From a bacterium (GTDB lineage: Bacteria > SZUA-182 > DTGQ01): DNA of 26,355 nt. Within the stretch, counting starts at the first letter, position 1; every line of letters begins with the position of its first letter. This document shows, in pieces, positions 1,424 through 19,739 of the stretch. Position numbers and translations under genes: made by a program. The notes beneath the pieces are model-generated. The model did not search any database. It was not told the DNA's origin and saw only the letters and a list, made by a program, of their open reading frames with translations. The DNA lies in the NCBI GenBank assembly GCA_040752695.1, contig JBFMGO010000087.1, positions 1 to 26,355 of the forward strand. The letters are read 5' to 3'.

Positions 1424-1541
1424 AGTAGCACTGCAAGGGTTCTGAATTTTTCATAAGTTACTATACTTATTTCCTTATTTCCAGAGAACATCCTTATTTA
1501 AAATCAATATCCAAAGACCCCACAACCACCTACTTGAGTGG

Positions 1542-1814
1542 TTAACCTTGCGGAAAATAGCGGTAAATTTCTCTTCTATGCAAGAGCCTGACAAAGATAA
1601 CTGTCTCGCCATCTATAATCAGACCGAGCCTGTAATCTCCAAGCCTTAGGCGATAATAGTATCCCCCTGTCCTTAACCTTTTAAGCCCGCTAAGCTCCAT
1701 GATATTTGCACTCGCTTCAATTGCCTGGATTTTCTCCTTGATTTGATTAAGCAACTGCTTATCCTGGATATTCTTTAGGTCTTTGGCAAAGCTCGCTCTG
1801 AATTCCAATTTCAT
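1542..1814 (-). CDS. relE: Type II toxin, RelE/ParE family
   Basis: 90-aa basic protein with FAKDLK...YYRLRLGDYRLG...FVRLLHRREIYR, typical RelE/StbE motifs. It has an ATGA overlap with the upstream small acidic ORF. Confidence 0.9.
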   Translation of the reverse strand: MKLEFRASFAKDLKNIQDKQLLNQIKEKIQAIEASANIMELSGLKRLRTGGYYYRLRLGDYRLGLIIDGETVIFVRLLHRREIYRYFPQG

Positions 1815-3844: not shown

Positions 3845-3913
3845 CGTTTCACCTTATTTACTTCTCCACTCCCCCTTTTTTCGAGGGGAAGCGCGAGATT
3901 TTTGCCATCTAGT

Positions 3914-4327
3914 CTAAGGTTCCTTTTTTACTGGACTTGGCCCCAGGTTCCTGATACTTTCATTGCCCAGTCGAACCATCTCCACAAATGCAGTCCATTC
4001 CAGTTCGGACAGAAAAAAGAACCGCAGCCGCTCTTTCTCGATCCCGATCTTCTCCAAAAGGGTACTCGTATGATCGATTCTTTTTCCTGCCCGTACGTTC
4101 CCCAACAGAAACTTGCAGCTATCCGGGTGACAGGCAAAGACAAACACCCCGTCAGCACCCTCTTCAAAGGCCTTCAGAATATGGATTATCTCCAGCTTTC
4201 CCGAGCAGGGAAGCCGGCAGATCCTGATGTTGGAAGGGTATCCTTCCTGCTGTGCCCCCGCTATGTCCGCAGCCCGGTAAGCGGAATTTTCGCAACAAAA
4301 TGCCACAATGGCCGGCGTAAAGTCCAT
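3914..4327 (-). CDS. mvhD: MvhD/FlpD-type [2Fe-2S] subunit (methyl-viologen-reducing hydrogenase delta family)
   Basis: Motifs AFCCENSAYRAAD, RLPCSGK, AFEEGADGV, ACHPDSCKF..GN and IGIEKERL. It follows the hdrA-like genes. Confidence 0.92.
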   Translation of the reverse strand: MDFTPAIVAFCCENSAYRAADIAGAQQEGYPSNIRICRLPCSGKLEIIHILKAFEEGADGVFVFACHPDSCKFLLGNVRAGKRIDHTSTLLEKIGIEKERLRFFFLSELEWTAFVEMVRLGNESIRNLGPSPVKKEP

Positions 4328-4332
4328 TAATT

Positions 4333-6144
4333 TTACCTCTCAAGGGTTAGTTCGGAAAAAATCTGATTATCTGAATAATGCACCATTTCAATAGCCTTGG
4401 CCGGACATTCACCGGCACAGATCCCGCACCCCTGACATGCTTCAGGGATAACCTTCGCTCCCCACTTCTGCCCCAGTTCGACCTCTCCGATTTCTATGGC
4501 CTGATGCGGGCAGGAGCGGAAACAGGTCAGGCACAGGGCGCATTTATCGGTGTCGATGACTACCTTTTGCTCGGTCTCCAGGTATCCGCGGGACAAGGTG
4601 GAGTAAACAGCCATGGCTACCGAACGTACATCACCGAGAGCCTCGCAGGTTTCTTCCTTCCCGTGACAGGAGCCGGCCAGGAAGATTCCCTTCTTGTTCG
4701 AAAGATTTGGCTTTAAGTGGATGTTCGCTTCCTGATAGAAGCCGCCCTTGTTCAGATTGACTCTGAGGGCATTTTTCAGACACTCGGTATCTTCGCCGGG
4801 AAGGATTTCATCCTCGAAGACCAGAAGGTCCGCATGGATGATGACAGGACGGGCTGCCCCCTCACTTTCCTGGCTGCCACATACCCCGGCATTTCCCGAT
4901 GCCGCCTTGGCTGAAGGCCGATCCAGGGCAGGATCATGAATCCGGACCGTGATAACGCCCTTTTCGATGCTGACCGTGGGCCCGGAATCTTCCGTAGAGC
5001 GGAAAAACAAAATTCCCGCCTGCCTGGCCTTTTGGTAAAGCGTTTCAATCTGTGTTCCTGAGACGATGATGTCTCTGGCCGCGATCACGACTTCCGCCTT
5101 AAACTGCTTTTTCAGGGCAATCGCTTCATTCAGCGCCATAACGGTGGACCTTTTGGCAAAGCCCTCTGCTTCACCGAGGATAAAGCAGACATATTTGGTC
5201 CTTTTGTCCGCAGTAACGAGGATCTGCTCAAGCGCCCTTCGCTCCCGCGTGACCAGGTCACTCAGGCCTGAAAGGCTGACGATTCTGTGGGAAGGACGCA
5301 AAGCGGTCATCTTTTGGACCGCCCTTTTTTCAGGCTCCGTACTGACCACAATGCTGCCTATATCCAGAATCTTTTCCTGGCCCGCAGTCTCCAAGGTTAC
5401 CCGGAAGGCACCGGGGCCGCCTTTTACCTGCGTAACCTGGCTCGAGGTCAAAATCTCGATCTTTTTATCATCGAGCTCTTTGAGCTTTTGCGTAATCCAG
5501 CCAGAGGAAAACACCTCATCACTCCCTTGTGCACCCTGGGTACAGGGATTCATGAAAGATGCATCCTTCGGGCACACCTTTTCCTGCTTCTCGACGAGAA
5601 TGGGCCTTAAGCCCAGGCCGTGCAGCTCAATGGCCATCTGGATACCCGAAATCCCAGCTCCGATCACCAGAGCCGAAGATTCCACCTTTCTTCTCACCTT
5701 CTCCAGGGGCTTGGCCAAAGCCACCCGCTTTATGGCAGATGAGAGTATCTGCCTGGCCTTTGGCATGCAGCCCTCTTTGTCAGCACATGCCCAGGCGCAC
5801 CCTTCCCGGATATTGGCTATGGTCAAAAAGGAGCGGTTCAACCCCGCTTCTTCAAGCACGTTCATGAAACGCACTTCGTACTGATGGGGAGAGCATCCGG
5901 CAATAACGAACCGGTTGCAGCCGGAGCGGACGATTTTGCTCCTCAGCCATTCAAGGCCGCTCCTGGTGCATAAAAAGCGGTTTTCGTCTACAAAGGCCAC
6001 ACCCGGTACTTGAGCTGCATAATCCATCAGGGCCTTGACATCGAAATAATCATTCATCATATGCCCGCAGGTGCAGAAGAATACCCCGATCTTTACCGGA
6101 ATCCCGTTATTCCCGCCAGTGCAGGAATCCAGATGATTATCCAT
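4333..6144 (-). CDS. hdrA: HdrA-like flavoprotein/FeS protein with a degenerate central cluster region
   Basis: HdrA N-terminal motifs (GVFFCTCG, FLC, IAGCSP, ANIREGCAW), Rossmann ALVIGAGISG, GIFLAGSC and C-terminal 2x[4Fe-4S] (CALCLTCFRSCP, CQGCGICAGECP). The QCVGSR..CS..CC motif is absent. Confidence 0.8.
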   Translation of the reverse strand: MDNHLDSCTGGNNGIPVKIGVFFCTCGHMMNDYFDVKALMDYAAQVPGVAFVDENRFLCTRSGLEWLRSKIVRSGCNRFVIAGCSPHQYEVRFMNVLEEAGLNRSFLTIANIREGCAWACADKEGCMPKARQILSSAIKRVALAKPLEKVRRKVESSALVIGAGISGIQMAIELHGLGLRPILVEKQEKVCPKDASFMNPCTQGAQGSDEVFSSGWITQKLKELDDKKIEILTSSQVTQVKGGPGAFRVTLETAGQEKILDIGSIVVSTEPEKRAVQKMTALRPSHRIVSLSGLSDLVTRERRALEQILVTADKRTKYVCFILGEAEGFAKRSTVMALNEAIALKKQFKAEVVIAARDIIVSGTQIETLYQKARQAGILFFRSTEDSGPTVSIEKGVITVRIHDPALDRPSAKAASGNAGVCGSQESEGAARPVIIHADLLVFEDEILPGEDTECLKNALRVNLNKGGFYQEANIHLKPNLSNKKGIFLAGSCHGKEETCEALGDVRSVAMAVYSTLSRGYLETEQKVVIDTDKCALCLTCFRSCPHQAIEIGEVELGQKWGAKVIPEACQGCGICAGECPAKAIEMVHYSDNQIFSELTLER

Positions 6145-7462
6145 GACATACCTCCTCCAAGCCCTTTTTCTTCAGCCCCCTCAAGAAGGCAACTGCCCGG
6201 AGAGCCGCCTCCTGGCCATGCGAAACGGATTCGACCAGGCTCTTTGGCCCCTGGCACGTGCCTGCAAGAAAGATCCCCGGCCGAGAGCTGACCGTCGAAT
6301 CCAGTAGATTCAAAGGAGCAAAGAATCCATCCCTGCCGGTCCTGAGACATAGGGTTTCGGCTAAAATCTGATTTTGCACAGCAGGGCTGATTCCCACCGA
6401 CAGAACCACCAGGTCAAAATCAGCACTCTCCATGCACCCCTTATCGATATTCTCATACCGCATTGAAACACCGGCTCCATTTCCCGCCTTTTCGATTTCT
6501 ACGGGGAGCCCCTTGATTAAGCTGATTTTCCCCCTCACCTGCTCGACGAGTGATAAAAACTCGCTTTCCGTTTTCTGCAGGTCGATGTAAAAAATAGTCA
6601 CTTCAGCATCACTGATCTGAGATTTGAGTTTGGCGGCCATGCGCACCGCGTATTTACAGCAAACTCTCGAGCAGTAATCCTGACTTATGTGCGGATCGCG
6701 GGAGCCAACACACTGAATGAAAGCTATCCTGGGGGGCATGTGCTCTTTCCCCTCCCTGGTAAGCGGACCGAAAAAGGCGCTGGCCCTTCCTGCAAGCAGC
6801 CTTTGCTCCAGGTCAAGCCCTGTAATCACCTCAGGGAGTCGGCCATAGCCAAGATGCCCTTTCTTTCGTGCATCATAGGCTGTAAAGCCGGTAGCCACAA
6901 CAAGAGCCGAGGCATGCAGGATTGTCGTTTCCTCTTTCTGGTTCAGGAAGATGGCCCCTGCCGGGCAATTGTCCTCACACAGGGCACAGCCGGTCTCCTG
7001 CTGAAAGGCCAGACAGTGGTTCCGGTCAATGGAAAACACATTCGGGATGGAAGACAGATAGGGCCGGCTGATGGCGATTCCAGGCTTCGGGCAGCTCTGA
7101 TAGCACAGAGAGCAGGCAATGCATTTATCTTCATCGATGAACCGCGGCTGCTTTCGAACATCAACTTCGAAAGAGACGCCGCCGTCTTTCAGCCTCACCT
7201 CGCGCACTCCCACCACTTCGGAGTGGGTCAAAAGGTGAATGTTGGGCGAGGATGCGGCCCTGGTGACCTTATCTTTAGCCAGGCAGACGCCGCAACTGTT
7301 GCATTGCTCGGTAGCCTTGCAGCAGAAGCTCAAAGCGTGGCCGCCAATACTTGATTTCTTTTCGACAACATACACTTCGTAGCCATTATCAGCCAGGGAG
7401 AGGGCAGAACTTACCCCGGCAATCCCGCCGCCGATAACAATGGCTTTGTCCTGATCGTTCAA
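6137..7462 (-). CDS. hdrA: HdrA-like FAD core protein lacking the N- and C-terminal HdrA FeS domains
   Basis: Rossmann VIGGGIAG, inserted ferredoxin (CIACSLCYQSCP; C...GCALCEDNCP), VATGF, IQCVGSRD...YCSRVCC, DLVVLSVG and GIFLAGTCQGPK. TTG start after an AAGGAGG RBS. Confidence 0.85.
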   Translation of the reverse strand: MNDQDKAIVIGGGIAGVSSALSLADNGYEVYVVEKKSSIGGHALSFCCKATEQCNSCGVCLAKDKVTRAASSPNIHLLTHSEVVGVREVRLKDGGVSFEVDVRKQPRFIDEDKCIACSLCYQSCPKPGIAISRPYLSSIPNVFSIDRNHCLAFQQETGCALCEDNCPAGAIFLNQKEETTILHASALVVATGFTAYDARKKGHLGYGRLPEVITGLDLEQRLLAGRASAFFGPLTREGKEHMPPRIAFIQCVGSRDPHISQDYCSRVCCKYAVRMAAKLKSQISDAEVTIFYIDLQKTESEFLSLVEQVRGKISLIKGLPVEIEKAGNGAGVSMRYENIDKGCMESADFDLVVLSVGISPAVQNQILAETLCLRTGRDGFFAPLNLLDSTVSSRPGIFLAGTCQGPKSLVESVSHGQEAALRAVAFLRGLKKKGLEEVCHG

Positions 7463-7517
7463 GGTCTGAAACCTCCTTTACGAGAAGCTGTCGGCATGTA
7501 ACATTTTCGTGAAAAGA

Positions 7518-7651
7518 AGAATTCAAAGAGTCAAGAGCAAAACTATCTTACATCCCCCCCTGCCCCCTTCAAAAAGGAGTGCTTTCCTTACTGCCGGCTT
7601 TTATCCTGACCTCTGTCTATACTCATTCAGACTCCTGACTCTTTGAATTCT
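7518..7651. repeat. Intergenic inverted repeat with a perfect 16-bp arm, plus degenerate heptamer repeats
   Basis: AGAATTCAAAGAGTCA (7518-7533) is the exact reverse complement of TGACTCTTTGAATTCT (7636-7651). CTGACTC-like units continue to 7680. Confidence 0.75.
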
Positions 7652-7680
7652 GACTCCTGTTCTTTGATTCTGACTTCTGA

Positions 7681-8604
7681 TCAATGAATTTCTGTCTCCT
7701 GGTTCGTCAGTCCCGCTCCATCCAGGATAGCCGGGATTTTCCCCTCAAGACCTATGGCCATGATGTGCACACCCGCGCACATACCCTGCACCTTTTGTAT
7801 CTGACGGCTGGCTATCCGGATTCCAGCTTCCAGGGGATCGGCCGAAGATTCCAATTCTTTGATCAAATGATCCGGCACCGTTACACCGGGGACATTCTGA
7901 TTGAGATACCGGGCCATGCCCGCAGACCGCAAAAGAAGAATCCCTGCCAGGATTGTGGCGCTAAGGTCATTGGCATATTTCATAAATCGTTCAAATTTCG
8001 TAAGGTCATAGATAGCCTGGGTCTGAAAAAATCTGGCTCCAGCGGCAACCTTTTTAGAAAACCGTACAAGGTGCGGCTCTAATGGGGAGGCTTCCGGATT
8101 CACCATGGCTCCGGGAAAAAGGTCGGTACTTCCCTCCAGGGCCGTGCCATTGGGCAGGGGCTTGTTCGCCATGGACCTGGTAGAAAAGTCACGCCCCTCG
8201 TTCAGGCGTCCGATGACCTGCAAAAGCTGTGTGGAATCAAGATCGAATACGGGCTTAGCCTGCGGATGGTCGCCCACTTTCGTGTGATCGCCGGTCAGAA
8301 CCAGGACATTTCTGATACCCAGCACGCTGGCACTGAGCAAGTCGGATTGCAGAGCGAGGCGGTTTCGGTCACGGCAGGTTATCTGATAGATAGGATCAAA
8401 GCCCTCCTCTTTGAGCAGATGGCAGGCAGCCAGGGAGCCGAGTCTCATAACCGAGCTCTGATTATCGGTCACATTGATTCCATGCACTCTCCCTTTCAGC
8501 TTATCTGCATGGGCCAGCATTTTTGAGACGTCGGTACCCTTCGGAGGGGCGATTTCGGCTGTAATGGTAAACTGTTTTTTTTCCAAGGCTTGCTGAAAGC
8601 CCAT
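7681..8604 (-). CDS. metF: Methylenetetrahydrofolate reductase MetF, copy 2
   Basis: Motifs EIAPPKG, NVTDNQ, QITCRDRNR, LTGD, FDLDS, FFQTQ and GVHIM. Confidence 0.92.
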   Translation of the reverse strand: MGFQQALEKKQFTITAEIAPPKGTDVSKMLAHADKLKGRVHGINVTDNQSSVMRLGSLAACHLLKEEGFDPIYQITCRDRNRLALQSDLLSASVLGIRNVLVLTGDHTKVGDHPQAKPVFDLDSTQLLQVIGRLNEGRDFSTRSMANKPLPNGTALEGSTDLFPGAMVNPEASPLEPHLVRFSKKVAAGARFFQTQAIYDLTKFERFMKYANDLSATILAGILLLRSAGMARYLNQNVPGVTVPDHLIKELESSADPLEAGIRIASRQIQKVQGMCAGVHIMAIGLEGKIPAILDGAGLTNQETEIH

Positions 8605-8636
8605 CCCAACCTCACTTACTTCTTATTCACTCTCTC

Positions 8637-9290
8637 TCACTTCTTCTTATTCACTGTCAAAACCCGAGGTTTGATGTTTTTGGAATAATCCTTGGGAGCA
8701 AAGACTTCCTTTATCGCCTCTACCTTTCCTAACTCTTTCAAACGCTCATAAATCTTGACCCAGGCACAGTCCCTGTCAGGATCAACCTCGCATTTGCCGT
8801 CACTCATGCCGCCACAGGGGCCATTCAAAAGCCCCTTGGAGCAGGTTGTCACCGGGCAGATCCCAGCCGTTTTGTCCAGGATGCACTCTCCACATAAAGA
8901 ACAGCGCTCCTCGAATTGCCCGAATCGCTTCACCGTGCCCAGAAAAAGGCTGTCCAGTGCAGGTACAGCCGGTACCTCCTGAAGTTCTGAAATCGTCTGG
9001 ACACCGGCACCACAGGCCATGACCACTACAGCTTCGGCTTCGGCCAGTTCGGCCTTTTTAAGCCGCAGCTCTTTTTTGCTGCTCAGAACATGGCAGGCAG
9101 ATTCAAGTACGCAATAACCCACAACCTCCCTGCCCTCTCCCGCAAGGAGTTGCTTCATCTCCAGAACCTGCTCTTCTCCCCCGCTCTGACAGGTGGCAGC
9201 GCACAGGCTGCAACCGATCAAGAAAACCTTTCTCTTCCCCTGAAGACTGCTCAGAATTTCATCGAAGGGTTTTTGCCGGGTGATGATCAT
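8637..9290 (-). CDS. metV: MetV, Cys-rich MTHFR partner subunit, copy 2
   Basis: Motifs GCSLCAATCQSGG, CGAGVQ and ERCSLCGEC...CPVTTCSKGLLNGPCGG...KCE...DCAW. Confidence 0.9.
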   Translation of the reverse strand: MIITRQKPFDEILSSLQGKRKVFLIGCSLCAATCQSGGEEQVLEMKQLLAGEGREVVGYCVLESACHVLSSKKELRLKKAELAEAEAVVVMACGAGVQTISELQEVPAVPALDSLFLGTVKRFGQFEERCSLCGECILDKTAGICPVTTCSKGLLNGPCGGMSDGKCEVDPDRDCAWVKIYERLKELGKVEAIKEVFAPKDYSKNIKPRVLTVNKKK

Positions 9291-9291
9291 A

Positions 9292-9669
9292 TCAGTTGTA
9301 CTCTTCTTGCAGGTACTGCTGGTATTCCTCCTCGTCGAGCAGGTTATTCAGTTCCCCGGGATTTTCCAGGAGCACCTTGATAATCCATCCTCTTTCGTAA
9401 GGATCCTCATTGACCAACTCCGGCTCGTCATCGAGGGCTTCGTTTACCTCGGTAACGGTGCCGCTTACCGGAGAGATCAGGTCAGTTACCGCTTTGGAGG
9501 ATTCAATCTGGCCAAAAGAGCTTGACTGCCGCACCTTTTTACCAGTAGTTTCAACCAGTAAAACGTCACCCAACTCCTCCTGAGCATGATCGGTGATTCC
9601 AACTATTCCCTTATTCCCCTCCACTCTGACCCACAAGTGCTCTTTATTGAAGTATAATTTTCCAGCCAT
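9292..9669 (-). CDS. gcvH: Glycine cleavage system H protein (lipoyl carrier)
   Basis: Motifs EHLWV, VGITDHAQEELGD, IESSKAV (lipoyl Lys), PVSG and PELVNEDPY..GWI. The ATG at 9669 follows an AAGGAG RBS (the ORF track starts at 9687). Confidence 0.93.
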   Translation of the reverse strand: MAGKLYFNKEHLWVRVEGNKGIVGITDHAQEELGDVLLVETTGKKVRQSSSFGQIESSKAVTDLISPVSGTVTEVNEALDDEPELVNEDPYERGWIIKVLLENPGELNNLLDEEEYQQYLQEEYN

Positions 9670-9723
9670 GATCAATCTCTCCTTCATTTTCCCTCATGAG
9701 AAGACGGCAAAAAGCATTCAAAA

Positions 9724-9797
9724 AGCCTGCCCGAAAAAATCCTTAGAAAGACACTTCATCACCATGAGTGCCTTAAAACCCGCTTTTCGGACAGGTT
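9724..9797. repeat. 74-bp element with 14-bp imperfect terminal inverted repeats (MITE-like or an mRNA stem)
   Basis: AGCCTGCCCGAAAA (9724-9737) and TTTTCGGACAGGTT (9784-9797) are 12/14 complementary. Confidence 0.55.
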
Positions 9798-10645
9798 CAG
9801 GAGAAAATCTCCGCAGATTTAACGGTATTCGCCATAAGCATGGTAATGGTCATGGGACCTACGCCGCCAGGCACGGGAGTGATCGCTGCAACTTTGTCTT
9901 TCATCCCTTCAAAGTCCACATCCCCGACAAGCTTTCCATCTGCAAGGCGGTTTACTCCGACATCAATTACCACAGCCCCTTCCTTGACCATATCGGCCGT
10001 GATCATCTTCGGTTTGCCAATGGCGGCGATAAGGATATCGGCCCTCTTAGTCTCATCAGCCAGGGATTTTGTTCTTGAGTGGCAAATGGTTACCGTGGCA
10101 TGCTCATGCAACAGCAGGCTGGCCACTGGTTTTCCGACAATATTGCTTCGGCCTACCACCACGACATTTTTCCCTTTGATGTCGATCTTACTGGCGTGCA
10201 GAAGTTCGACCACTCCGGCCGGTGTGCAGGGGGGAAAAAGGGCTTTTCCCAGGACGAGATTGCCAATATTCACCGGATGAAAGCCATCTACATCCTTGGT
10301 GGGGACAATCGCCTCAATGACCATTTCCTCGTTGAAATGGCCGGGCAGAGGGAGCTGAACTAAAATTCCGTTGATTTTCTCATCCTGATTCAGCCGGTTG
10401 ATAAGGGCCAATACCTCGTCCTGACTGGTATTGGCAGGCAGGGCGTATTTCTCGGAATGAATGCCAAGGCTCTCGCAGGCCTTCTCCTTCATGCGGACAT
10501 AGACCTTTGAGGCAGGATTTTCCCCTACCAGAATAACTGCCAGTCCGGGAGTTTTCCCTTTTTCCTTGAGAGTTTCAATCCTGCTTTTCAGCTTTTCCCG
10601 CAACTCATTGCCGATTTTCGTCCCGTCGATAATCATGCCACTCAT
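9797..10645 (-). CDS. folD: Bifunctional methylene-THF dehydrogenase / methenyl-THF cyclohydrolase
   Basis: Motifs PGLAVILVG, YVRMK, GILVQLPLP, KDVDGFHP, PCTPAG, GRSNIVGKP and TPVPGGVGPMT. Confidence 0.97.
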   Translation of the reverse strand: MSGMIIDGTKIGNELREKLKSRIETLKEKGKTPGLAVILVGENPASKVYVRMKEKACESLGIHSEKYALPANTSQDEVLALINRLNQDEKINGILVQLPLPGHFNEEMVIEAIVPTKDVDGFHPVNIGNLVLGKALFPPCTPAGVVELLHASKIDIKGKNVVVVGRSNIVGKPVASLLLHEHATVTICHSRTKSLADETKRADILIAAIGKPKMITADMVKEGAVVIDVGVNRLADGKLVGDVDFEGMKDKVAAITPVPGGVGPMTITMLMANTVKSAEIFS

Positions 10646-10777
10646 TCACGACCCTCCTTAATTTCCTTTTATCTTCCTCAATCCTTGAGGCATCAAGGTC
10701 TGTTCTTCCTGTATTGAAAACCTTCCTCCCTTGTTTCTCATGTTCTCTTCATTCAAGAAAACCTTACCGCAGAACCC

Positions 10778-11335
10778 TCAGCGGTTCTGAATGAGTTCCA
10801 GCATCTCCGCCCTTGTTTTCGGATTGGTTCGAAAGGCACCCCGTACAGCCGAAGTAATCACTTTGGCATGAGGTTTTTTCACCCCCCGCATGGACATGCA
10901 CAGGTGTTCGGCCTGGATCACCACCATGGCGCCTATCGGTTTCAATCCATCCATAACGATATTCACCAGTTCCTTGGTCAGCCGTTCCTGAAGCTGGGGC
11001 CTCTTGGCCAGTACATCGAGAATCTGGGCCAGTTTGCTGATTCCTATGATCTCCCCGCGGTTGGGCAGATAGGCGATGTGGGCATCTCCAAAGAAGGGAA
11101 GCAGATGGTGCTCACAGATTGAATAAAAGGGGAGATCTTTCACCAGCACCATCTCGTCATATTCCTCTCCCTTAATGGGAGTCATGATCTTTCGCGGGTC
11201 CCGCTCCAATCCGGCAAAAATTTCCTGGTACATCTCGGCTATGCGGACCGGCGTTCTCTCCACTCCCGGCCAGTCGGCTATGCCGATGCCTTCAAGGACC
11301 AGCCTGACCCCTGCCTCTATTTTTTGTGTATCCAT
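10778..11335 (-). CDS. folE: GTP cyclohydrolase I (type IA)
   Basis: Motifs [31 protein letters not shown] and HLCMSMRGV. Confidence 0.96.
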
Positions 11336-11509
11336 TTTTCCTTATTTTCTTGACTGCTGTTGCCTTGCATACACCACGCATGAAATACGCGGCCAGTTAG
11401 GTGTTCCGCTCAGGTGCCATGGAGTCCTTGTTTGCACCCTCCCTAATCTGCTGTTTCCTTCCCCGAAATCCTCATATGAGCCGCTTGTTAGAGGCTTTTG
11501 AGAGGCCGG

Positions 11510-12295
11510 TTACTGCCGGGCAGCCAGCCTGGCATCCAGGAATTTTTTGATTTTCTCGATCCCGGCAACTGTTTCCCGGCAGGAGGAAAAGGGGGATTCC
11601 CCCTTTGAATCAGCCTCGACCAGTTCCCAGGAGAATGGCAAAAAGCCGATGATTTCAAAATCGGGCAACTGGCTCTGAATAAACTCTTTATCCTCAGGAT
11701 TTCGCACCTTGTTGGCGACGAGAAAACTTTCCGAAATCCCCAGATCCAGAGCCAACTGACGGATATCCCGGGCGGTCTGAAGGCTCCTTTTACCCGGCTC
11801 TACGACAATCAAAAAGGCATTGACCGCTCTGGCCGTTCCTCTGCCCAGATGCTCGATTCCGGCCTCCATGTCCAGAATCAGCATTTCCCCCTTCTTCAAT
11901 AGAAGATGAGTCACCAGGGTCTTGAGAAAGACGCCTTCAGGGCAATAACATCCGCTGCCGCCGGGCTTGGGTTTGCCAAGTGACAGAAGGCGGATGTTTT
12001 CAAACTGGATCCCGAACCGGTCAGCCACATCATCCACAGAAGGGTTCATCCTGAAAAATCCTCCTGCTCCTCCCGGCCTGGCACCCGTACGCTCTTCAAT
12101 CAGGGAGGATAAGGAACAAAGAGGCTGAATCTTCAGGATTTCCGATTCCGGAAAGCCAATAGCCGATGCCAGATTTGCATCCGGATCAGCATCGACGGCC
12201 AGGACCTTTTGTCCCGTTTGAGAATAGAGTCTTGCCAGGACGGCAGATACCGTAGTTTTTCCCACTCCTCCTTTACCAGTAACAGCAATTTTCAC
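11510..12295 (-). CDS. cooC: CooC/AcsF-family nickel-insertion ATPase (CODH/ACS maturation)
   Basis: Deviant Walker A GKGGVGKTT, DADPDANL, GCYCPE (CxC Ni site) and DMEAGIEHLGRG. GTG start after AGGAG. Confidence 0.92.
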   Translation of the reverse strand: MKIAVTGKGGVGKTTVSAVLARLYSQTGQKVLAVDADPDANLASAIGFPESEILKIQPLCSLSSLIEERTGARPGGAGGFFRMNPSVDDVADRFGIQFENIRLLSLGKPKPGGSGCYCPEGVFLKTLVTHLLLKKGEMLILDMEAGIEHLGRGTARAVNAFLIVVEPGKRSLQTARDIRQLALDLGISESFLVANKVRNPEDKEFIQSQLPDFEIIGFLPFSWELVEADSKGESPFSSCRETVAGIEKIKKFLDARLAARQ

Positions 12296-12378
12296 TATCC
12301 GATATACTCCTTATGAATGATCTCTTATGAACGATCCATGTACACAATCTGCACAACAAAACCTGACATGCCAAAGCC

Positions 12379-13176
12379 TTAAATAAACTCCGAACCATAG
12401 CCTATCCGGCGGGAAATCTCCAGAGCGGCCTTTTTGACCAAAGGAACCAGTTCTTTCTCCACCCTCTCGTCAGACATTCGATGAATGGGACCGGAAATAC
12501 ACACACCGGCCACCACGTTCTCCGTATAATCCCGTATGGGAGCGCCGACGCACTTGACGTCTTCTTCGTATTCTTCATTATCGACAGCGTAACCCTGGCT
12601 GCGAACCAGATCCAAATGCTTCAACATCTCCGTTTCCGAAATGATGGTGTTTTTCGTAAAACCCTTAAGCCCTGTTTCCTTGAGCAGTTTCCGGATCTCC
12701 TCCGGTGATTTGTAGGCTATCTGCACTTTGCCGGCTGAAGTGCAAAATATCGGGGACCTGCGGCCCAGCATGGGGATAATTCGAACCGGACGGCTGGTTT
12801 CCATCATATCGACATAGATAACCTCTCCACGGTCGCAAACGGACAGATAAACGGTTTCCATGGTCTTGGTTGCCAGTGCGTCGAGAATATCATGGGCCTG
12901 GCTGACCAGTCCCATCCTTCGCAAGCAGGATTGCCCCAATTCGAAACACCTCAACCCGAGACGGTAATTGCCGGTAGCGGGATTCTGCTCGATGTATCCC
13001 TGATAGGAGAGAGTGGAAAGCAATCGAAAAATATTGTTTTTGGGAAGTCTCAATCGATTGCTTAAAGTGGTGACTCCGAGCTCTTTCTCATTACTCATGA
13101 TAAAGACATTCAAAACGTCCAGAGCATGAAGTACAGACTGAATCAAGTACTCAGAAGCTTCTTTCTTATGCATCAC
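12379..13176 (-). CDS. IclR-family transcriptional regulator
   Basis: N-terminal HTH (IQSVLHALDVL...LGVTTLS..L.LPKNNIFRLL.TL...GY...YRLG) and C-terminal effector domain (CTSAGK, GYAVDNEE, CVGAPI, ISGP). The start is GTG 13176 or ATG 13173. Confidence 0.95.
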   Translation of the reverse strand: MMHKKEASEYLIQSVLHALDVLNVFIMSNEKELGVTTLSNRLRLPKNNIFRLLSTLSYQGYIEQNPATGNYRLGLRCFELGQSCLRRMGLVSQAHDILDALATKTMETVYLSVCDRGEVIYVDMMETSRPVRIIPMLGRRSPIFCTSAGKVQIAYKSPEEIRKLLKETGLKGFTKNTIISETEMLKHLDLVRSQGYAVDNEEYEEDVKCVGAPIRDYTENVVAGVCISGPIHRMSDERVEKELVPLVKKAALEISRRIGYGSEFI

Positions 13177-13326: not shown

Positions 13327-13355
13327 AGTTTAACACACTGTTCTATTCTTGTCAA
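13327..13355 (-). promoter_or_regulatory. Sigma70-type promoter for iclR and the C1 operon
   Basis: Minus strand TTGACA-17 nt-TAAACT with an extended -10 TGn. Confidence 0.7.
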
Positions 13356-13742: not shown

Positions 13743-14276
13743 CTATCTGGTTTCTCGAAAGGTACGCTGGTTGTGGCATTCTGTGCAGTCGGTGCCGTTT
13801 TCGCCCTCATGAACATCCCGATGGCAATGAATGCATTGATTTTTATCGAGCAGATAGCTGCCCTTCTTATGGCAGGCTTCGCATTTTAAAAGATCATGGC
13901 TGCCCTCTATCGGCCATCCGGTTAAGGCGTGATCAAAGGTTTTCGGATCTATATGCGCGATACGATATGACCTTCCATGATGTTCTGAATGGCAGTGTTC
14001 GCATTCCCAGGAAACCCTGGAATGGAAACCGGTTTTGGCTTGAATCATCGTTTTGATTTCCTGGTGGCAATCCAGACATTTCCTGGTATCCAGCCGTTTG
14101 CCTCTCGTATGGCAGGCCGCACAATCACCGTTTGCATCAAGTTCTTCATGCGCCGAGGAGAGCGGGCCGGGGGAAAACAGTTGAGACCATTTGAGGTGAC
14201 ATCCCGCATACAGGAACACCGAAACGCACGCTATTACGAAAATAAGGAAAAGAGTCCTTCTCGTCAGAAGATCCAT
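13743..14276 (-). CDS. Exported or membrane-anchored hexaheme c-type cytochrome
   Basis: Six CxxCH motifs (CAACH, CLDCH, CEHCH, CEACH, CIHCH, CTECH), an N-terminal basic plus hydrophobic segment, an SPGPLSSAH motif and many spare His for bis-His ligation. Confidence 0.92.
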   Translation of the reverse strand: MDLLTRRTLFLIFVIACVSVFLYAGCHLKWSQLFSPGPLSSAHEELDANGDCAACHTRGKRLDTRKCLDCHQEIKTMIQAKTGFHSRVSWECEHCHSEHHGRSYRIAHIDPKTFDHALTGWPIEGSHDLLKCEACHKKGSYLLDKNQCIHCHRDVHEGENGTDCTECHNQRTFRETR

Positions 14277-15142
14277 CGATACCCCCAGTATGAGGTAACC
14301 AGAACATGGGCCAGGGTAATGAAAAAAAGCAGGTAACTGGAAACCTTATGAATAATCTCCCATTTGTTCAATACGCAAAGACATACATCCAGAACGGCGA
14401 TGGAGCGGATATCTCTCAGCCTCTTGATAAGCTGGTCTGCCCACTTGTGCAACTCACCCTGTTGATCATCGTCATATTTTTCGTTTATGAGATCGAGCAA
14501 AGACCCGGTTTCTTTTTTGATCGACCGCCACTGGCGGATTGTTTCGACGAGTCCTGAACTGCACGGGAATCCAGGCGGTTTCAGGTCCATTATTCTTTCG
14601 ATGACCGGGGAAATCCGGCTGGCGTTTCTTAAATCCCTCTCTATGAGAAGGTCGATTTCATGCAGGGGCTCATAGATAGAGGAAATGCCCCAAAAGCAGT
14701 ACCCGGCGAGAAACCTTCCGAACACTCCTGAAATCACCACGACAATCATGAGCCAGAACGCCACCCCGACTATCCCCTTAAGGGCAAAAGCGGAATGGAA
14801 CACAATAAGGACGGGGCCCAGAATACCAAAGAAAACATGGATCTCCAGCCAGAGGGAAAGAGGGCCTAAAAACTCAAAACACTCGACCCTTTTCCTCAAG
14901 ACATAGAGAGTGTAGGAAAGAAGCATGAAAATGGTTCCCACAACGCCCAGTGCATGACCTACGGTTCCCGAAGGTTTAAATCGAAGGTGCAGCGCAGTGT
15001 TAAGATACCTGACCTGCTCAGGGATGAAAATATACGGCTTGTAGAGGAAGGAGAGATACCCTGCCGTAAGGATAACGAGAATAAGCCACAAAAGACGAAA
15101 AATCCACTGCCTGTCCCGATAACGAACTCTATTCTCTGCCAT
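14264..15142 (-). CDS. Polytopic membrane protein, probable di-heme b (ferric-reductase-like) transmembrane electron conduit
   Basis: About 5-6 hydrophobic helices and two H-x13-H helices (HVFFGILGPVLIVFH; HKVSSYLLFFITLAH). The ATG at 15142 lies just after the upstream stop; the 15343 extension in the ORF track overlaps the upstream gene. Confidence 0.75.
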   Translation of the reverse strand: MAENRVRYRDRQWIFRLLWLILVILTAGYLSFLYKPYIFIPEQVRYLNTALHLRFKPSGTVGHALGVVGTIFMLLSYTLYVLRKRVECFEFLGPLSLWLEIHVFFGILGPVLIVFHSAFALKGIVGVAFWLMIVVVISGVFGRFLAGYCFWGISSIYEPLHEIDLLIERDLRNASRISPVIERIMDLKPPGFPCSSGLVETIRQWRSIKKETGSLLDLINEKYDDDQQGELHKWADQLIKRLRDIRSIAVLDVCLCVLNKWEIIHKVSSYLLFFITLAHVLVTSYWGYRWIF

Positions 15143-15150
15143 TGTTTCCC

Positions 15151-16419
15151 TTACCTTCGGTCCCTGGGAGCTTTTCCTTCGTCCCCATGGTGAGCACCGT
15201 GAGCATGATGGGCATGGTGATCCCCGCTTTCGGCCCCTTCGAGTGAGTACTTTAAGAGCTCCCTCAACTCGACATTGATCGACCCCTTGTTCTTCGAGAT
15301 AAAGTCTTCGATAGTCATGATCTTGAGAGCCCCTGTGGGACAATTATGAACGCAGGCCCTGTTTGAATAGCCTGCACAGCCATCACATTTTACCGCTACC
15401 TTGAACTGGCGTTTTTTCCTGATATTCCGGTCTATGTAATCGAGGGTGATAGCGCCTGTCGGACATATCTTGGCGCATTCGCCGCATCCCGTACATGCCT
15501 GGGTAAGCTCAAGGAACGGAGTGCCGATCCGTCTGTTGATGCCGCGCTGTACAAATCCTATGGCGCTTGCCCCGATATTCTGCTCGCAGACACGAACGCA
15601 GAGCCCGCACAGAATGCAGGCATCCGGGTCATTCCTGAGCATAAAGCGGCTCTTGGCCACTCCCGCATCCTTGGCCATGTTCTCGATTACGTCAGAACCC
15701 GGACATCTGGCCATGAGCAGTTCAAAAATCATCCTGCGGGTTTTTATCACCCTTTCCGTATCAGTCGTTACGATGATGCCTTCCTGCACGGGATACATGC
15801 AAGAAGGGTAGAGGCGGGTTATCTTCCCTGCGCTCACCTCAACCAGGCAGATACGGCAGGCGCCCAGAGAACTCACCGCCGGATGATAGCAAAGGGTGGG
15901 GATATGGATGCCATATCTATTGGCAACGTCCAACACCGTCTCCTCCCGCATACCCATTACCGCCTGCTCATTGATGGTGAATTGGACCAGGTCCTCCCTC
16001 GGCCTGTATTCCAGGATAACCCGCGAAAGAAAGACCGATTCCTGTCTGAGCCGGTCCAGAACCACCAGAGGAAGCCGGTCGATGTAGTCCTCCGTTTTGA
16101 TTATGCAGTGCGTAGCGCCCAGCCTCAGCGCGTCAGCAGCCATCATCTCATTTCTGTGACCGATCAGAACTATCACGGGCTTTTTGTAGTGCCCCCGTAT
16201 CTTCTGTAAAACCTCAAGGCCATTTTTCCGGGTAAGCTCGAGGTCAAGGATGATGAGGTCATACTGTATCGCCTTCTCAAGATATGAAAAGCACTCCTCA
16301 GCACTCGCAGCAGGCTCTATGATCATGGACCCGGGTAGACCATGCAGCTTTTCCTTGATCAATCTGGCATGAGTAGGATCATCTTCAAGCAGAAGGATAG
16401 TATTTATGGCGTTTTCCAT
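15151..16419 (-). CDS. Fusion of a response-regulator receiver domain, a NuoG/HydA-type N-terminal FeS module ([2Fe-2S] + 2x[4Fe-4S]), an orphan [4Fe-4S] Cys group and a His-rich tail
   Basis: Receiver: LLLEDD...LIILD59...GA..IIK108. FeS: IPTLCYH...GACRIC...SC, CILCGLCVRVC and CTGCGECAKICP. Extra group KCDGCAGYSNRACVHNCP. Tail HHAHHAHGAHH. There is no H-cluster or molybdopterin domain. Confidence 0.85.
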   Translation of the reverse strand: MENAINTILLLEDDPTHARLIKEKLHGLPGSMIIEPAASAEECFSYLEKAIQYDLIILDLELTRKNGLEVLQKIRGHYKKPVIVLIGHRNEMMAADALRLGATHCIIKTEDYIDRLPLVVLDRLRQESVFLSRVILEYRPREDLVQFTINEQAVMGMREETVLDVANRYGIHIPTLCYHPAVSSLGACRICLVEVSAGKITRLYPSCMYPVQEGIIVTTDTERVIKTRRMIFELLMARCPGSDVIENMAKDAGVAKSRFMLRNDPDACILCGLCVRVCEQNIGASAIGFVQRGINRRIGTPFLELTQACTGCGECAKICPTGAITLDYIDRNIRKKRQFKVAVKCDGCAGYSNRACVHNCPTGALKIMTIEDFISKNKGSINVELRELLKYSLEGAESGDHHAHHAHGAHHGDEGKAPRDRR

Positions 16420-16526
16420 CTTTTACCTCTTTCATGAACCCGTTTTCATTCACCTTTTGCCTCTCTCACTCACCCTTTTTGCCCCTTTCATTCCGCTGCC
16501 ACTCTTTCTGTCCCGCCTCTTCCAGG

Positions 16527-18374
16527 CTACTGCACCCAGACGGCCTGTACAGGGCATGCCTTAAAGCAGATCCCGCACTTTATGCATTTTGTCTGATCAA
16601 TGCTGTGGGGTCTTTTTTTCTCACCGCTGACTGCGGACTGCGGGCACTGCCGGGCACATTTCGTACACCCGATGCATTTTGTCTCGTCGATCCCGTACCT
16701 GATCAAAGCCCTGCATACCCTGGCAGGACAGCGCTTGTCCTGGATATGGGCCAGATATTCATCCTCGAAATGTCTTATCGTGGATAAGACGGGATTGGGG
16801 GCCGTCTGCCCCAGGGCACACAACGAAGCATCTTTTATAACCGCCGACATCTCCTTCAGAAGATCGAGGTCACTCAACGCTCCCGTGCCCTTGGTGATTC
16901 CCGTTACGATGTTGAGCATCTGGCTGATTCCTTCCCTGCAGGGGACGCATTTGCCGCACGACTCGCCCTGTAAAAAGTTCAGGAAATAGCGGGCAACCTC
17001 GACCATGCAGGTATCCTCGTCCATAACGATCATCCCGCCTGACCCCATCATGGAGCCAGCCTTGGTGAGTTGGTCAAAATCAATGGGTAAGTCAAGCATA
17101 TGGTCCGGCATGCAGCCCCCGGATGGCCCGCCGGTCTGCACGGCTTTAAATTTTTTCTTATTGGGAACCCCTCCGCCGATGGTAAATACGATTTCCCGCA
17201 AAGAGGTGCCCATGGGGACCTCCACCAGACCCGTATTATTAATCTTGCCCACTAGGGAAAAAACCTTGGTGCCCTTGCTTCCCTCGGTGCCAAAAGAGGC
17301 AAACCAGTCGGCTCCCCGGTCGAGAATAATCGGGATATTGGCAAAGGTTTCCACGTTATTGATCAGGGTCGGTTTCCCCCATAACCCCTTTTGGGCTGGA
17401 AAGGGTGGTTTGGGTTTCGGTGTGCCTTCACGGCCCTCAAGGGACATGATCAGGGCGGTCTCTTCACCGCATACAAAGGCGCCGCTCCCCTTGCTGATAT
17501 GAATATCAAAGCGAAATCCTGAGCCAAGAATATTCTCGCCGAGCAGATTATACTGCCGGCAGCTTTGAATAGCTGTATCGAGGTTCTTGACAGCCAGAGG
17601 GTATTCTGCCCTTACATATACATAGCCTTCCGAGCTCCCTATGGCTCTGGCCGCGACCGCCATCCCCTCGACTACTGCGAAAGGATTTCCTTCAATGATG
17701 CTTCTATCCATATAGGCACCAGGATCACCCTCATCAGCGTTGCATACTACATATTTTTGGTCCGCCTGACTCTCTGCCGTGAGTTTCCACTTGAGCCCCG
17801 TGGGAAATCCTCCGCCTCCTCTGCCCCGAAGGCCGGATTTCATGATCTCGCCGATGATGTCCTCGGGTTTCAGGTGAAACAATGCCCTGGACAGGGCTGA
17901 AAAGCCGCTGAAGGCAATATAGTCATCGATCGAAACAGGATCAATAAAGCCGTTGTTTTTTAATACGATTCTCTTCTGACCTTTGTAAAAGGGAATATCC
18001 CTTTCAAAAACAATTTTGTTTCCGCTGAGAGGATCCGTATACAAGAGCTTTTCAATTACCTTGTTCCTTTGAATGGTCTGCTCGATGATATCTTTGGCAT
18101 CTTCGGGAGAAATCCTGTGATAAAATATCCCCTGTGGCCGAATTACGGCCAGAGGCCCCATTTCACAAAAGCCGTGGCACCCCGATATGAGCAGCCTGAC
18201 AGACTCGGTCATCCCTCTTTGGGCCAGTTCATCCTTGAAGGCGGTAATGACCTTTTCACAACTGTATGCGCGACAGCCCGTTCCCCCGCAGATAATAATA
18301 CAGGGCTTGTTAAAATCTGCCTTCTGGTTAACCGACTTTCTGTACTCTTCCAAATCGATCGCTGACTTCAGCAC
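16527..18374 (-). CDS. NuoF/HydB-type NAD(H)/FMN-binding subunit, long (bifurcating-type) form
   Basis: N-terminal CGGTGC...GCHGFC [2Fe-2S], GLRGRGGGGFPTG, NADEGDPGAYMDR, GAFVCGEETAL, GGPSGGC, ESCGKCVPCREG...SLCALG, H...CPARVC and two C-terminal [4Fe-4S]. The start is probably GTG 18374 after GAGG (the ORF track gives TTG 18422). Confidence 0.93.
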   Translation of the reverse strand: MLKSAIDLEEYRKSVNQKADFNKPCIIICGGTGCRAYSCEKVITAFKDELAQRGMTESVRLLISGCHGFCEMGPLAVIRPQGIFYHRISPEDAKDIIEQTIQRNKVIEKLLYTDPLSGNKIVFERDIPFYKGQKRIVLKNNGFIDPVSIDDYIAFSGFSALSRALFHLKPEDIIGEIMKSGLRGRGGGGFPTGLKWKLTAESQADQKYVVCNADEGDPGAYMDRSIIEGNPFAVVEGMAVAARAIGSSEGYVYVRAEYPLAVKNLDTAIQSCRQYNLLGENILGSGFRFDIHISKGSGAFVCGEETALIMSLEGREGTPKPKPPFPAQKGLWGKPTLINNVETFANIPIILDRGADWFASFGTEGSKGTKVFSLVGKINNTGLVEVPMGTSLREIVFTIGGGVPNKKKFKAVQTGGPSGGCMPDHMLDLPIDFDQLTKAGSMMGSGGMIVMDEDTCMVEVARYFLNFLQGESCGKCVPCREGISQMLNIVTGITKGTGALSDLDLLKEMSAVIKDASLCALGQTAPNPVLSTIRHFEDEYLAHIQDKRCPARVCRALIRYGIDETKCIGCTKCARQCPQSAVSGEKKRPHSIDQTKCIKCGICFKACPVQAVWVQ

Positions 18375-18453
18375 TGACGAAACCTCGCTTTCGATGTATC
18401 TTCCTTCAAACCAGCCCCCCAACTACATGTAGCATCTTCATCGAACATCCTCA

Positions 18454-19326
18454 TCAAGTGTTCTCATCAAACATCTTGAGTATTGAGCTGATCTTCTCAG
18501 GTGTTACCTTACCGAAATACTCTCCGTCAATAACCATGACCGGCCCGAGAGCACACGCGCCCAGACAGTTAACACTCTCCAGGGTAAATTTCATATCCTC
18601 TGTCGTTTCACCTGCCTTGATCCCCAAGATCCGCTCAAGTTCATCGAGAATCTTGGCCGCGCCTCTCACATGGCAGGCTGTACCCATGCATACGTGAATA
18701 ATGTGACGCCCCCTGGGAATAAGGCTGAAGGCGTTATAAAAGGTCGCCACATTGTAAACCCGGCTGAGCGGAACACCCATTTTACCGGCAACAGCTATCA
18801 GGGCCTCCCTGGGAAGGTACTTATATTCGATCTGGATCTCCTGCAAAACGGTCATTAAAGAGCTCGGAACCCTGGGAAACCGATCGATTATTTCGTCTAT
18901 CTTCCTGACATCCAAAAGCCCGTCGTTTGTATTTTCCACTTCGGCCTTCTGCGGCATTACGAACGAGATTATTTTATCCAGAAGTGTTGTTTCCTGCTCC
19001 TGCTTTGAAAACAGAAGAATAGCGCTGTATGGGCAGGCTCTCATACATAAGCCGCATCCTACACAATTTTCCGTGACAACAATATGCCCTTCCTCATCTT
19101 TTTCAACCCCATGGCGGTTGCAGGTCTCAATACATTTAGGGTTTCTACATATCTTACAGAGGTTAGGGATGAGGCTGATGCCAATAATGGCCGAGCGATC
19201 TCTGACGTGCCTGGAAACATCCTTATGCCTTCTCTTACAGGCTGCGATGCAATTACCGCAGTTAAGGCACTGTTTAATGTCACTTACTACTATCGTTTGA
19301 GAATCTGCCATATAAGAGTCTGCCAT
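18454..19326 (-). CDS. Fusion of three DmsB/HydN-type [4Fe-4S] Cys groups with a NuoE/HydC [2Fe-2S] subunit
   Basis: N-terminus: CLNCGNCIAAC, CKICRNPKCIETC and CVGCGLCMRACP. C-terminus: NuoE motifs VATFYNAF, VCMGTACHVRGA and VNCLGACALGP. Confidence 0.88.
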   Translation of the reverse strand: MADSYMADSQTIVVSDIKQCLNCGNCIAACKRRHKDVSRHVRDRSAIIGISLIPNLCKICRNPKCIETCNRHGVEKDEEGHIVVTENCVGCGLCMRACPYSAILLFSKQEQETTLLDKIISFVMPQKAEVENTNDGLLDVRKIDEIIDRFPRVPSSLMTVLQEIQIEYKYLPREALIAVAGKMGVPLSRVYNVATFYNAFSLIPRGRHIIHVCMGTACHVRGAAKILDELERILGIKAGETTEDMKFTLESVNCLGACALGPVMVIDGEYFGKVTPEKISSILKMFDENT

Positions 19327-19709: not shown

Positions 19710-19739
19710 AGTATACTCATTTCTCTCACAGCGTGTCAA
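19710..19739 (-). promoter_or_regulatory. Sigma70-type promoter for the NuoEFG-like/cytochrome operon
   Basis: Minus strand TTGACA-18 nt-TATACT, implying a leader of about 380 nt. Confidence 0.55.

Follow-up and report, generated by a model that had tools for sequence, protein, structure and literature searches.

A candidate membrane-bound Bfu complex in which a split ferredoxin may connect NAD(H) and ferredoxin to a hexaheme cytochrome c

To what does a NuoEFG-type module of the HydABC/Bfu kind pass its electrons when it is encoded without a catalytic subunit? The question is raised by a 26,355-nucleotide (nt) stretch of bacterial DNA (assembly GCA_040752695.1, contig JBFMGO010000087.1; hereafter the window), which is the entire contig C87 of a 6.05 Mb genome of 96.6% completeness (G000). 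Five genes, all on the minus strand (19326-13743) and separated in turn by 79, 107, 8 and -13 nt, are followed by an interval of 566 nt before the next gene. They are real and look like a single operon, in agreement with an earlier sequence-only reading of this DNA, which had described them as co-oriented and closely spaced. In our view there is about an even chance (probability roughly 0.5) that the five proteins constitute one membrane-bound complex, in which a Type 2 BfuABC core is wired to a diheme-b protein and an outward-facing multiheme cytochrome c. The genes and their domains, as delimited from the list of open reading frames (ORFs) and from motif comparison, are as follows.

18454-19326, minus strand: FdN-NuoE (Fd-NuoE), 290 aa
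18952-19326, minus strand: FdN, the N-terminal three quarters of a HycB/WorS-type 4x[4Fe-4S] ferredoxin, carried by NuoE; motifs I-III, 12 Cys, residues 20-98
18454-18951, minus strand: NuoE/BfuC domain (PF01257, E 7e-53); C1 [2Fe-2S] ligands C213, C218, C254, C258
16527-18374, minus strand: long NuoF/BfuB, 615 aa from a likely GTG start (the longest ORF starts instead at 18422); FMN/NAD site, N-terminal [2Fe-2S], N3-type [4Fe-4S], Cys3His site, two C-terminal [4Fe-4S]
15151-16419, minus strand: REC-NuoG', 422 aa
16015-16419, minus strand: receiver-like (REC) domain fused to NuoG'; acidic pocket and Lys kept
15430-16014, minus strand: core of NuoG', Type 2 BfuA; A1 [2Fe-2S], A2 and A4 [4Fe-4S]; best solved relative WorA 9MQX_A (E 1e-43)
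15151-15429, minus strand: FdC, motif IV (C345, C348, C356, C360) and a C-terminal helix at the end of NuoG', from Cys motif comparison
14264-15142, minus strand: five-helix inner-membrane protein (IMP) of PCC3/PCC4 type, putative diheme b, 292 aa from a likely ATG (a longer ORF of 359 aa would overlap NuoG'); W98-H102-H116, S138-G139-G142, W261-H265-H279
13743-14276, minus strand: membrane-anchored hexaheme cytochrome c with c7-like repeats, 177 aa; 6 CxxCH, a single hydrophobic helix at the N-terminus as anchor

The best evidence for a physical wire between these proteins is a ferredoxin divided between two of them, which the earlier reading had overlooked. That reading held that NuoG' carries no H-cluster or Mo/W domain, and we also found neither; its statement that the subunit ends after its own iron-sulfur (FeS) clusters did not stand, as the additional motif C345, C348, C356, C360 comes right after the A2/A4 domain. 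The 12 Cys of motifs I-III on NuoE and the four of motif IV on NuoG' add up to the 16 of an intact relative (P0191), so that sixteen Cys occur on a single chain only in intact relatives, and in the window only as a sum over two chains. P0191 is 90% and 84% identical to the two halves, and its best solved relatives are HDCR HycB3 (E 2e-17), formate hydrogenlyase HycB and WorS (E 1e-10). In the HycB/WorS-type fold, two of the clusters draw on both motif I and motif IV, and neither half would therefore be complete alone; WorS has been described as two intertwined domains (PMC12318220). In the gene order of the window, the nuoEFG cassette interrupts the ferredoxin gene, keeping the reading frame at either junction, in a loop which is variable in solved relatives, and the variable linker that follows FdN in NuoE marks the split site. 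A His-rich tail of FdC is unique to the window copy among 13 aligned.

This division is widespread among relatives. The 37 homologs of the N-terminal half comprise 24 FdN-NuoE proteins, six intact ferredoxins, five single chains (FdN, half of NuoE, A2/A4 and FdC) and two fusions with the membrane protein, and motif IV is present in none of the 24. A search with the C-terminus of NuoG' yielded 115 new proteins, with motif IV in 28/28 close ones and 0/87 others. Since the ferredoxin is split in 24/37 of the N-half and in 28/28 of the close C-half homologs, two subunits would have to build the wire jointly. The recurrence of the split across many genomes ruled out an assembly chimera or a one-off fusion. 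In P0013 and P0018, homologs of the membrane protein are headed by a 200-residue ferredoxin, whose first part matches the N-terminus of NuoE (77%) and whose last part the C-terminus of NuoG' (77%); FdN, FdC and the membrane protein form one chain in these two proteins and in L026.

Intact forms of the ferredoxin are scattered over the FdN tree in three or more places, one of them next to the closest relatives of the window, and this scatter makes it probable that some are secondary losses. The root of the tree is unreliable (long outgroup), and the order of insertion followed by loss is drawn from the wider family being intact and not from a rooted test. In the origin that we propose, a bfu cassette would have been inserted into the variable ferredoxin loop of an older module of ferredoxin, membrane protein and cytochrome. 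We also observed single-chain mini proteins of 374-407 aa (L035:6748-7890, P0197, P0206, P0207, P0215 and P0217), composed of FdN, the helical half of NuoE, A2/A4 of NuoG and FdC, i.e. a six-cluster wire devoid of the two [2Fe-2S] domains. The AlphaFold model of a natural single-chain mini protein was low in confidence (pLDDT 56, pTM 0.33).

Judged by its sequence, the soluble part has the composition of a Type 2 BfuABC module. The C1 ligands of NuoE are invariant in 23/23 sequences. NuoF matches PF01512, PF10589 and Fer4 above the cut-off and PF10531 below it (E 1e-4), which we take to correspond to the InterPro domains that define BfuB (FMN-binding, SLBB, NADH 4Fe-4S and C-terminal 2x[4Fe-4S]). 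It is closest to solved bifurcating HydB/BfuB proteins, the best being the NiFe-Bfu HydB 7T2R (E 6e-253), and all five BfuB sites (B1-B5) have their ligands (C29/34/66/70; C456/H543/C549/C554; C473/476/479/519; eight C-terminal Cys). Bifurcating HydB/BfuB proteins are marked by A or E at 232, M at 234, F at 367 and GGPSG at 427-431 (Losey et al. 2020, PMC7311640). The signature A-Y-M, F, GGPSG was present in 11/11 NuoF proteins examined, with Y as the middle residue in place of the F of the four solved relatives compared; in this respect, the earlier suggestion of possible bifurcation is consistent with the signature residues. Type 2 BfuA is defined by A1, A2 and A4 without A3, A5 or a catalytic domain (Schut et al. 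2022, PMC9304861), and NuoG' likewise lacks A3 (N5), A5 and a catalytic domain, the A3 motif being found in 0/28 close homologs. Thus the lack of a catalytic domain in NuoG' is no oddity and belongs to the definition of the type; the association of such a module with a membrane protein and a cytochrome was upheld by their co-conservation.

The genes, their ligands, the split and its conservation can be read directly from the sequences. The membrane protein was found in 17/41 genomes searched, including 12/13 of the order (the class comprises 20 genomes), and 20 of 21 matched loci were fetched, the exception being the window's own. All five genes, whose co-occurrence had been set as a check, share one contig in 10 loci of nine genomes (window included), in four gene orders. 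Among the 16 close loci other than the window, nine are complete (eight genomes; a contig end truncates NuoF in one), three are cut by contig ends (two of these with F-E-G starts on other contigs) and two contain an intact ferredoxin and no Bfu genes; the remaining two (L034 and L035) are considered below. NuoG' lies directly upstream of the membrane gene in 13/13 loci that have it (window included), over all four gene orders, and the refuting case named in the earlier reading, a lack of co-conservation, therefore did not arise. NuoF comes from two lineages, one of them sister to plain BfuABC located beside a glutamate-synthase-like gene, which indicates that NuoF has been swapped, with the fused subunits remaining associated. 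When species genomes were scanned by close alignment, which detects near relatives only, the result was 13 close and four distant loci and no Bfu-linked copies outside the known set.

The plain BfuABC loci (L099:1314-7120, L100:6157-11986 and L101:7370-12334) encode a short Type 2 BfuA and a NuoF that likewise carries A-Y-M. Next to these comes a gene for a 525-aa protein resembling FMN glutamate synthase (PF01645, E 1e-9), and two of the three loci continue with an NrpR regulator. They are candidates for a glutamate-synthase-linked Bfu, a type that we did not see in the Bfu survey (PMC9304861), and are likely to represent the source lineage of one NuoF group.

The membrane protein has five hydrophobic segments in its 292 aa, in agreement with the model helices. 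The two H-x13-H helices reported earlier were verified as H102/H116 and H265/H279, residues which are retained in 150/150, 150/150, 132/137 and 132/135 aligned homologs, and a 114-residue soluble insertion separates helices 4 and 5. All motifs of PCC3/PCC4 IMPs are present and near-invariant (SGXXG at 138 in helix 4, WX3HX13H at 98 and 261 in helices 3 and 5); the assignment to this type is based on these motifs and on the cluster layout of homologs. Because of the ferredoxin fusion, the N-terminus is expected to be cytoplasmic. H102 and H265 would then face the inside and H116 and H279 the outside, with the 114-residue insertion on the cytoplasmic side. A profile search (E 0.001) finds 4376 representatives at 50% identity, which makes this a large family. 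Its PCC3/PCC4 members have been hypothesised to be quinone-active diheme b proteins, with a pfam13247 gene upstream in PCC4 and some porin-less clusters containing another redox protein (He et al. 2017, PMC5566968); the relevant passages of later papers add only the distribution and expression of PCC3.

The supposed likeness to ferric-reductase/NOX membrane domains holds for the His pattern and the helix count, but membership of that family could not be shown. PF01794 gave weak matches in 24/112 relatives; Foldseek with the model (pLDDT 81) returned nothing at E 0.001; the VIA fold lists were headed by chemoreceptor and coiled-coil bundles, with no ferric-reductase/NOX chain among the 50 shown; and a profile search of solved structures produced coiled coils only. 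In an atlas comparison the nearest clusters were unnamed, with no structural match over TM 0.5, and HHalign against one MsrQ and one ferric-reductase-domain protein gave probabilities of 0.1 and 3.4%, which are not significant. Weak fold matches include cytochrome b561 and CybB (Z 7.9, root-mean-square deviation 3.3, 130 aligned; Z 7.3, 3.6, 134 aligned). In comparison with the ferric reductase/NOX/MsrQ domain and cytochrome b561, the protein thus has no match above cut-off and contains the additional soluble insertion.

The presence of a hexaheme cytochrome was borne out as well (6 CxxCH in 177 aa). Seven non-motif His are invariant, enough for bis-His ligation, and there are six or nine heme motifs per cytochrome, nine in 6/14 aligned copies. 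A lipoprotein anchor was ruled out (a Cys follows the hydrophobic stretch in only 2/14).

Docking of the two soluble pieces on the membrane protein received weak support from complex prediction: FdN together with residues 258-398 of NuoG' and two hemes scored 0.56 against the membrane protein, compared with 0.01 for the best control and 0.00 when the NuoG' piece was replaced. The value belongs to a weak band (the mark was reached by 116/157 solved and 2/215 mismatched pairs, and 18 solved pairs and both mismatches lie at or below 0.60). The runs agreed in at least 45% of contacts, with partner pLDDT of at least 74.

In the complex that we propose, electrons of NADH and reduced ferredoxin would pass through the FMN and clusters of BfuBC to A1, A2 and A4 of NuoG', and from A4 to the four [4Fe-4S] clusters of the ferredoxin, which the N-terminal part of NuoE and the C-terminal part of NuoG' would build in trans; both chains would supply ligands to two of the four. 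The inner heme b, the outer heme b, the six c hemes and finally periplasmic carriers would follow. The split wire would stand in the position of WorS in WorABCSL, where WorA takes electrons from WorS at A4 (PMC12318220); electron exchange with BfuA at this cluster characterises the extra subunits of Type 2 Bfu enzymes.

As regards direction, it is most likely that NADH and ferredoxin electrons are fed out to periplasmic cytochromes, with a quinone-linked role as the main rival. The membrane potential, which is roughly 150 mV, aids outward and opposes inward electron flow and so makes the outward direction likelier. PMC9304861 gives about -280 mV for NADH and about -500 mV for ferredoxin, and the mid-potential branch, as their mean, lies near -390 mV. 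Export would cost one charge per electron. A membrane potential of about 150 mV would bring outward transfer to an effective -540 mV, and inward transfer from ordinary cytochromes would be blocked. Outward flow would then amount to confurcating export of reductant from fermentation or the acetyl-CoA pathway to a cytochrome network, or to a periplasmic hydrogenase or formate dehydrogenase. We put forward only tentatively, as well short of an even chance, the stronger claim of a membrane-spanning, quinone-free and non-pumping bifurcating complex, whose third substrate is a periplasmic cytochrome, whose mid branch is tuned by the membrane potential and two of whose wire clusters are each liganded by two polypeptides. 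If this were true, NADH and ferredoxin could reduce periplasmic H+ or CO2, or supply extracellular partners, and BfuC-BfuA assembly would be a checkpoint for membrane conduction.

Several observations weigh against a single wired complex of this kind. The docking score lies in the weak band mentioned above, and assembly, heme binding, electron path, direction and bifurcation are predictions. The membrane protein has no Pfam match above cut-off, PF01794 included, and no clear structural match. NADH alone would suffice if the acceptors were well above -280 mV, and confurcation would then bring no obvious gain. The recurrence of intact, Bfu-less forms in the FdN tree indicates that the membrane arm can do without the Bfu part. 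Locus L034 has no cytochrome and no REC, and L035, in which a mini protein adjoins a full REC-NuoG', the membrane protein and the cytochrome, has no NuoF within 19 kb. All genomes with the five-gene module are kin within one small class. Bifurcation may not be uniform either, as the first N-terminal [2Fe-2S] ligand is Ser in 3/14 NuoF copies (L029, L030 and L033, with the second ligand moved by one residue); these are confined to the gene order E-G-m-c-F and possibly form a non-bifurcating subgroup.

Distant loci of the membrane family point both ways. A thioredoxin-reductase-like NAD(P)/4Fe-4S protein is encoded nearby in five of ten, an FNR/2Fe-2S protein in one and a cNMP-ferredoxin in one, so that in 7/10 another cytoplasmic FeS or NAD(P)-flavin partner adjoins the membrane gene; the other three, with no cytoplasmic partner within the stretch fetched, also speak against the proposed complex. 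Loci L037, L039, L054 and L067 are PCC3-like clusters (IMP, two cytochromes of 14-40 hemes and a porin-like protein) in which an NAD(P)/4Fe-4S gene of thioredoxin-reductase-like type is also present. This is a hint that PCC3 could connect to NAD(P)H directly, beyond quinones alone. A further distant homolog is followed downstream by a gene for a 1722-aa cytochrome with 67 CxxCH (L056:930-6098).

Both halves of the proposed complex have precedents. The tungsten enzyme WorABCSL of Acetomicrobium mobile (Type 2 Bfu, 9MQX, PMC12318220) shares the short BfuA with A1, A2 and A4, BfuB, BfuC and a WorS-type 4x[4Fe-4S] wire, predicted here to be attached at A4 as well; in contrast, the window module has no tungsten subunit WorL, its wire is divided over BfuC and BfuA rather than being a separate subunit, motif IV occupies the place of the zinc finger and adaptor helix of WorA, and the far end is a membrane heme protein with a cytochrome c. 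HDCR HycB3/HycB4 and formate hydrogenlyase HycB (7QV7, 7Z0S) belong to the same four-cluster family and match the intact relative from end to end, its C-terminal helix included, but are single chains, whereas here the protein is split over two other subunits in the loop that joins motifs III and IV. The predicted Mbh-Bfu and Nuo-Bfu (PMC9304861) also have a Bfu core feeding a membrane complex from NADH and ferredoxin; their arms are antiporter-like and proton-pumping, with a NiFe or quinone site, in contrast to one diheme-type protein and a cytochrome without pumping subunits.

With the PCC3/PCC4 IMPs (He et al. 2017, PMC5566968) the membrane protein shares a length of about 300 aa, five helices, SGXXG, two WX3HX13H motifs and an adjoining repeat-rich multiheme cytochrome. 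The FeS gene upstream in PCC4 subgroup II is of the pfam13247 family, which FdN also matches, and distant homologs of the membrane protein occur in clusters laid out like PCC3, in which an IMP is accompanied by two large cytochromes and a porin-like protein. Unlike in PCC3, a porin and an extracellular multiheme cytochrome are absent from the window operon and from beside the close loci, and unlike in PCC3/PCC4 the cytoplasmic partner is a three-subunit Bfu module; Supplementary Table 6 of PMC5566968, which gives only IDs and lengths, names no redox partner NuoEFG. The architecture had been called unrecognised, and word matching (not meaning) in open-licence papers and bioRxiv full text found no cytochrome-linked Bfu type with a split wire, the word "cytochrome" being absent from the main text of the Bfu survey PMC9304861 and from one of its supplement files; the membrane-plus-cytochrome arm had, however, already been described in silico (PMC5566968). 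What appears to be new is the union of the two halves and the split wire, for which these searches found no precedent.

The rival that survives best retains the same complex but makes its membrane protein a cytochrome b that acts on quinones: NADH, alone or together with ferredoxin, would reduce menaquinone at the hemes, and the cytochrome c would trade with the quinone pool with no direct wire. Two of its supports also count against the wire, namely that a quinone-active role is the published hypothesis for PCC3/PCC4 IMPs (PMC5566968) and that the genome has two MqnA/D-family menaquinone genes. Moreover, the complex I cluster lacks nuoEFG, leaving room for another NADH:quinone entry, and two of the weak fold matches are to cytochrome b561 and CybB. 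On the other hand, redox partners are encoded for both membrane faces, which suits a through-wire, and no quinone-site motif was identified, although no dedicated test was made. We regard this role as improbable on balance but as a serious contender; the two readings are compatible and can coexist. The complex I-like cluster (G000:C83:4982-17723) includes A, B, C, D, H, I, J, K, M and N by inspection, with no nuoL seen, and lies immediately 3' of a gene for a 23-heme cytochrome.

It is unlikely that the complex works inwards, low-potential periplasmic electrons (from H2, formate, minerals or partner cells) being split by bifurcation between NAD+ and ferredoxin to supply the Wood-Ljungdahl pathway. 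The setting is inviting: a methyl-branch cluster lies immediately downstream, acetyl-CoA synthase is present, two NiFe hydrogenases and one formate dehydrogenase have export-type N-termini, 50 ORFs contain at least three CxxCH and PCC3 is found in iron oxidisers (PMC5566968). Nevertheless, given the acceptor mean of about -390 mV calculated above and the membrane potential, an outside donor at about -540 mV would be needed. The potentials of c7-type hemes lie far above this value. Furthermore, the one-carbon cluster does not adjoin the module in the loci of relatives and has its own promoter candidate.

Very unlikely, in our estimation, is that NuoEFG' works for a catalytic enzyme whose genes lie elsewhere (a formate dehydrogenase, a hydrogenase or the complex I without EFG), with the membrane genes as mere neighbours. 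The genome has only two NuoF genes and a complex I cluster that lacks nuoEFG, a second formate-dehydrogenase-like set (C230/C16) has NuoE with NuoF not seen, and the NuoF proteins of the various loci are of two lineages. However, NuoG' lacks A3/N5, the cluster leading to NuoI; the formate dehydrogenase on C9 (a separate Fdh-Bfu is present) has its own E/F, and the five NiFe large subunits each have their own partners. The split ferredoxin also links NuoE and NuoG' to a domain which in relatives is fused with the membrane protein. The genome also contains an Rnf-like cluster (by inspection), and no dsrA was found above cut-off.

Least probable of all is a redox sensor, rather than a bulk-flux enzyme, in which the receiver domain reports the periplasmic or NADH redox state: the REC fusion (27/28 close NuoG' homologs by length and Pfam), a REC-PAS gene after the operon in several loci of family f2 and a cNMP-binding fusion in the distant L040 suggest it, but the phospho-Asp, although present in the window copy, is found in 9/28 homologs and the switch Thr/Ser in 0/28, there is no output domain, and REC is missing in L034 and P0225. 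Residue 86 is hydrophobic in 28/28 (positions are those we assume from the CheY register), and the domain does not qualify as a canonical phospho-receiver; it is more likely a structural or allosteric appendage, mostly non-canonical. The REC-PAS protein (L021:6412-7365, with equivalents in L022-L024 and L036, 3' of the operon) is about 41% identical to the fused REC.

Two promoter-like sites are candidates for the borders of the five-gene unit:

19710-19739, minus strand: sigma-70-like promoter candidate TTGACA-18-TATACT, 11/12 consensus matches, about 385 nt upstream of the first gene
13327-13355, minus strand: promoter candidate of the downstream IclR/one-carbon cluster, 10/12 consensus matches; likely end of the five-gene unit

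The scan gave seven sites in total against 7.9 in shuffles, which is not above chance, so that these are consensus matches only; an Rfam search of the window gave no match. The downstream region (2232-13176, minus strand) encodes IclR, a CooC-like ATPase, folE, folD, gcvH, two metV/metF pairs, two hdrA-like genes and mvhD, and appears to be a Wood-Ljungdahl methyl-branch cluster with a possible Hdr-linked methylene-tetrahydrofolate reductase. At the end of the window, a low-GC (39%) patch (266-1814, minus strand) encoding a ParE-type toxin and a nuclease-like protein of the PLD family is probably a small defence or mobile element unrelated to the five-gene finding.

To conclude, the Bfu family would gain a cytochrome-linked, membrane-crossing branch, which is absent from the text of its defining survey (PMC9304861). 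The split ferredoxin would record the grafting of a bifurcating module onto a membrane wire, and it predicts [4Fe-4S] clusters shared between subunits. The four different cytoplasmic FeS/NAD(P)-flavin partners found beside members of the membrane family suggest a general plug-in route to periplasmic cytochromes, which would include the PCC3 clusters of iron oxidisers. As the function of this large membrane family is so far only hypothesised, the five-gene complex may serve as a test case for the role of the widespread PCC3-type membrane protein.

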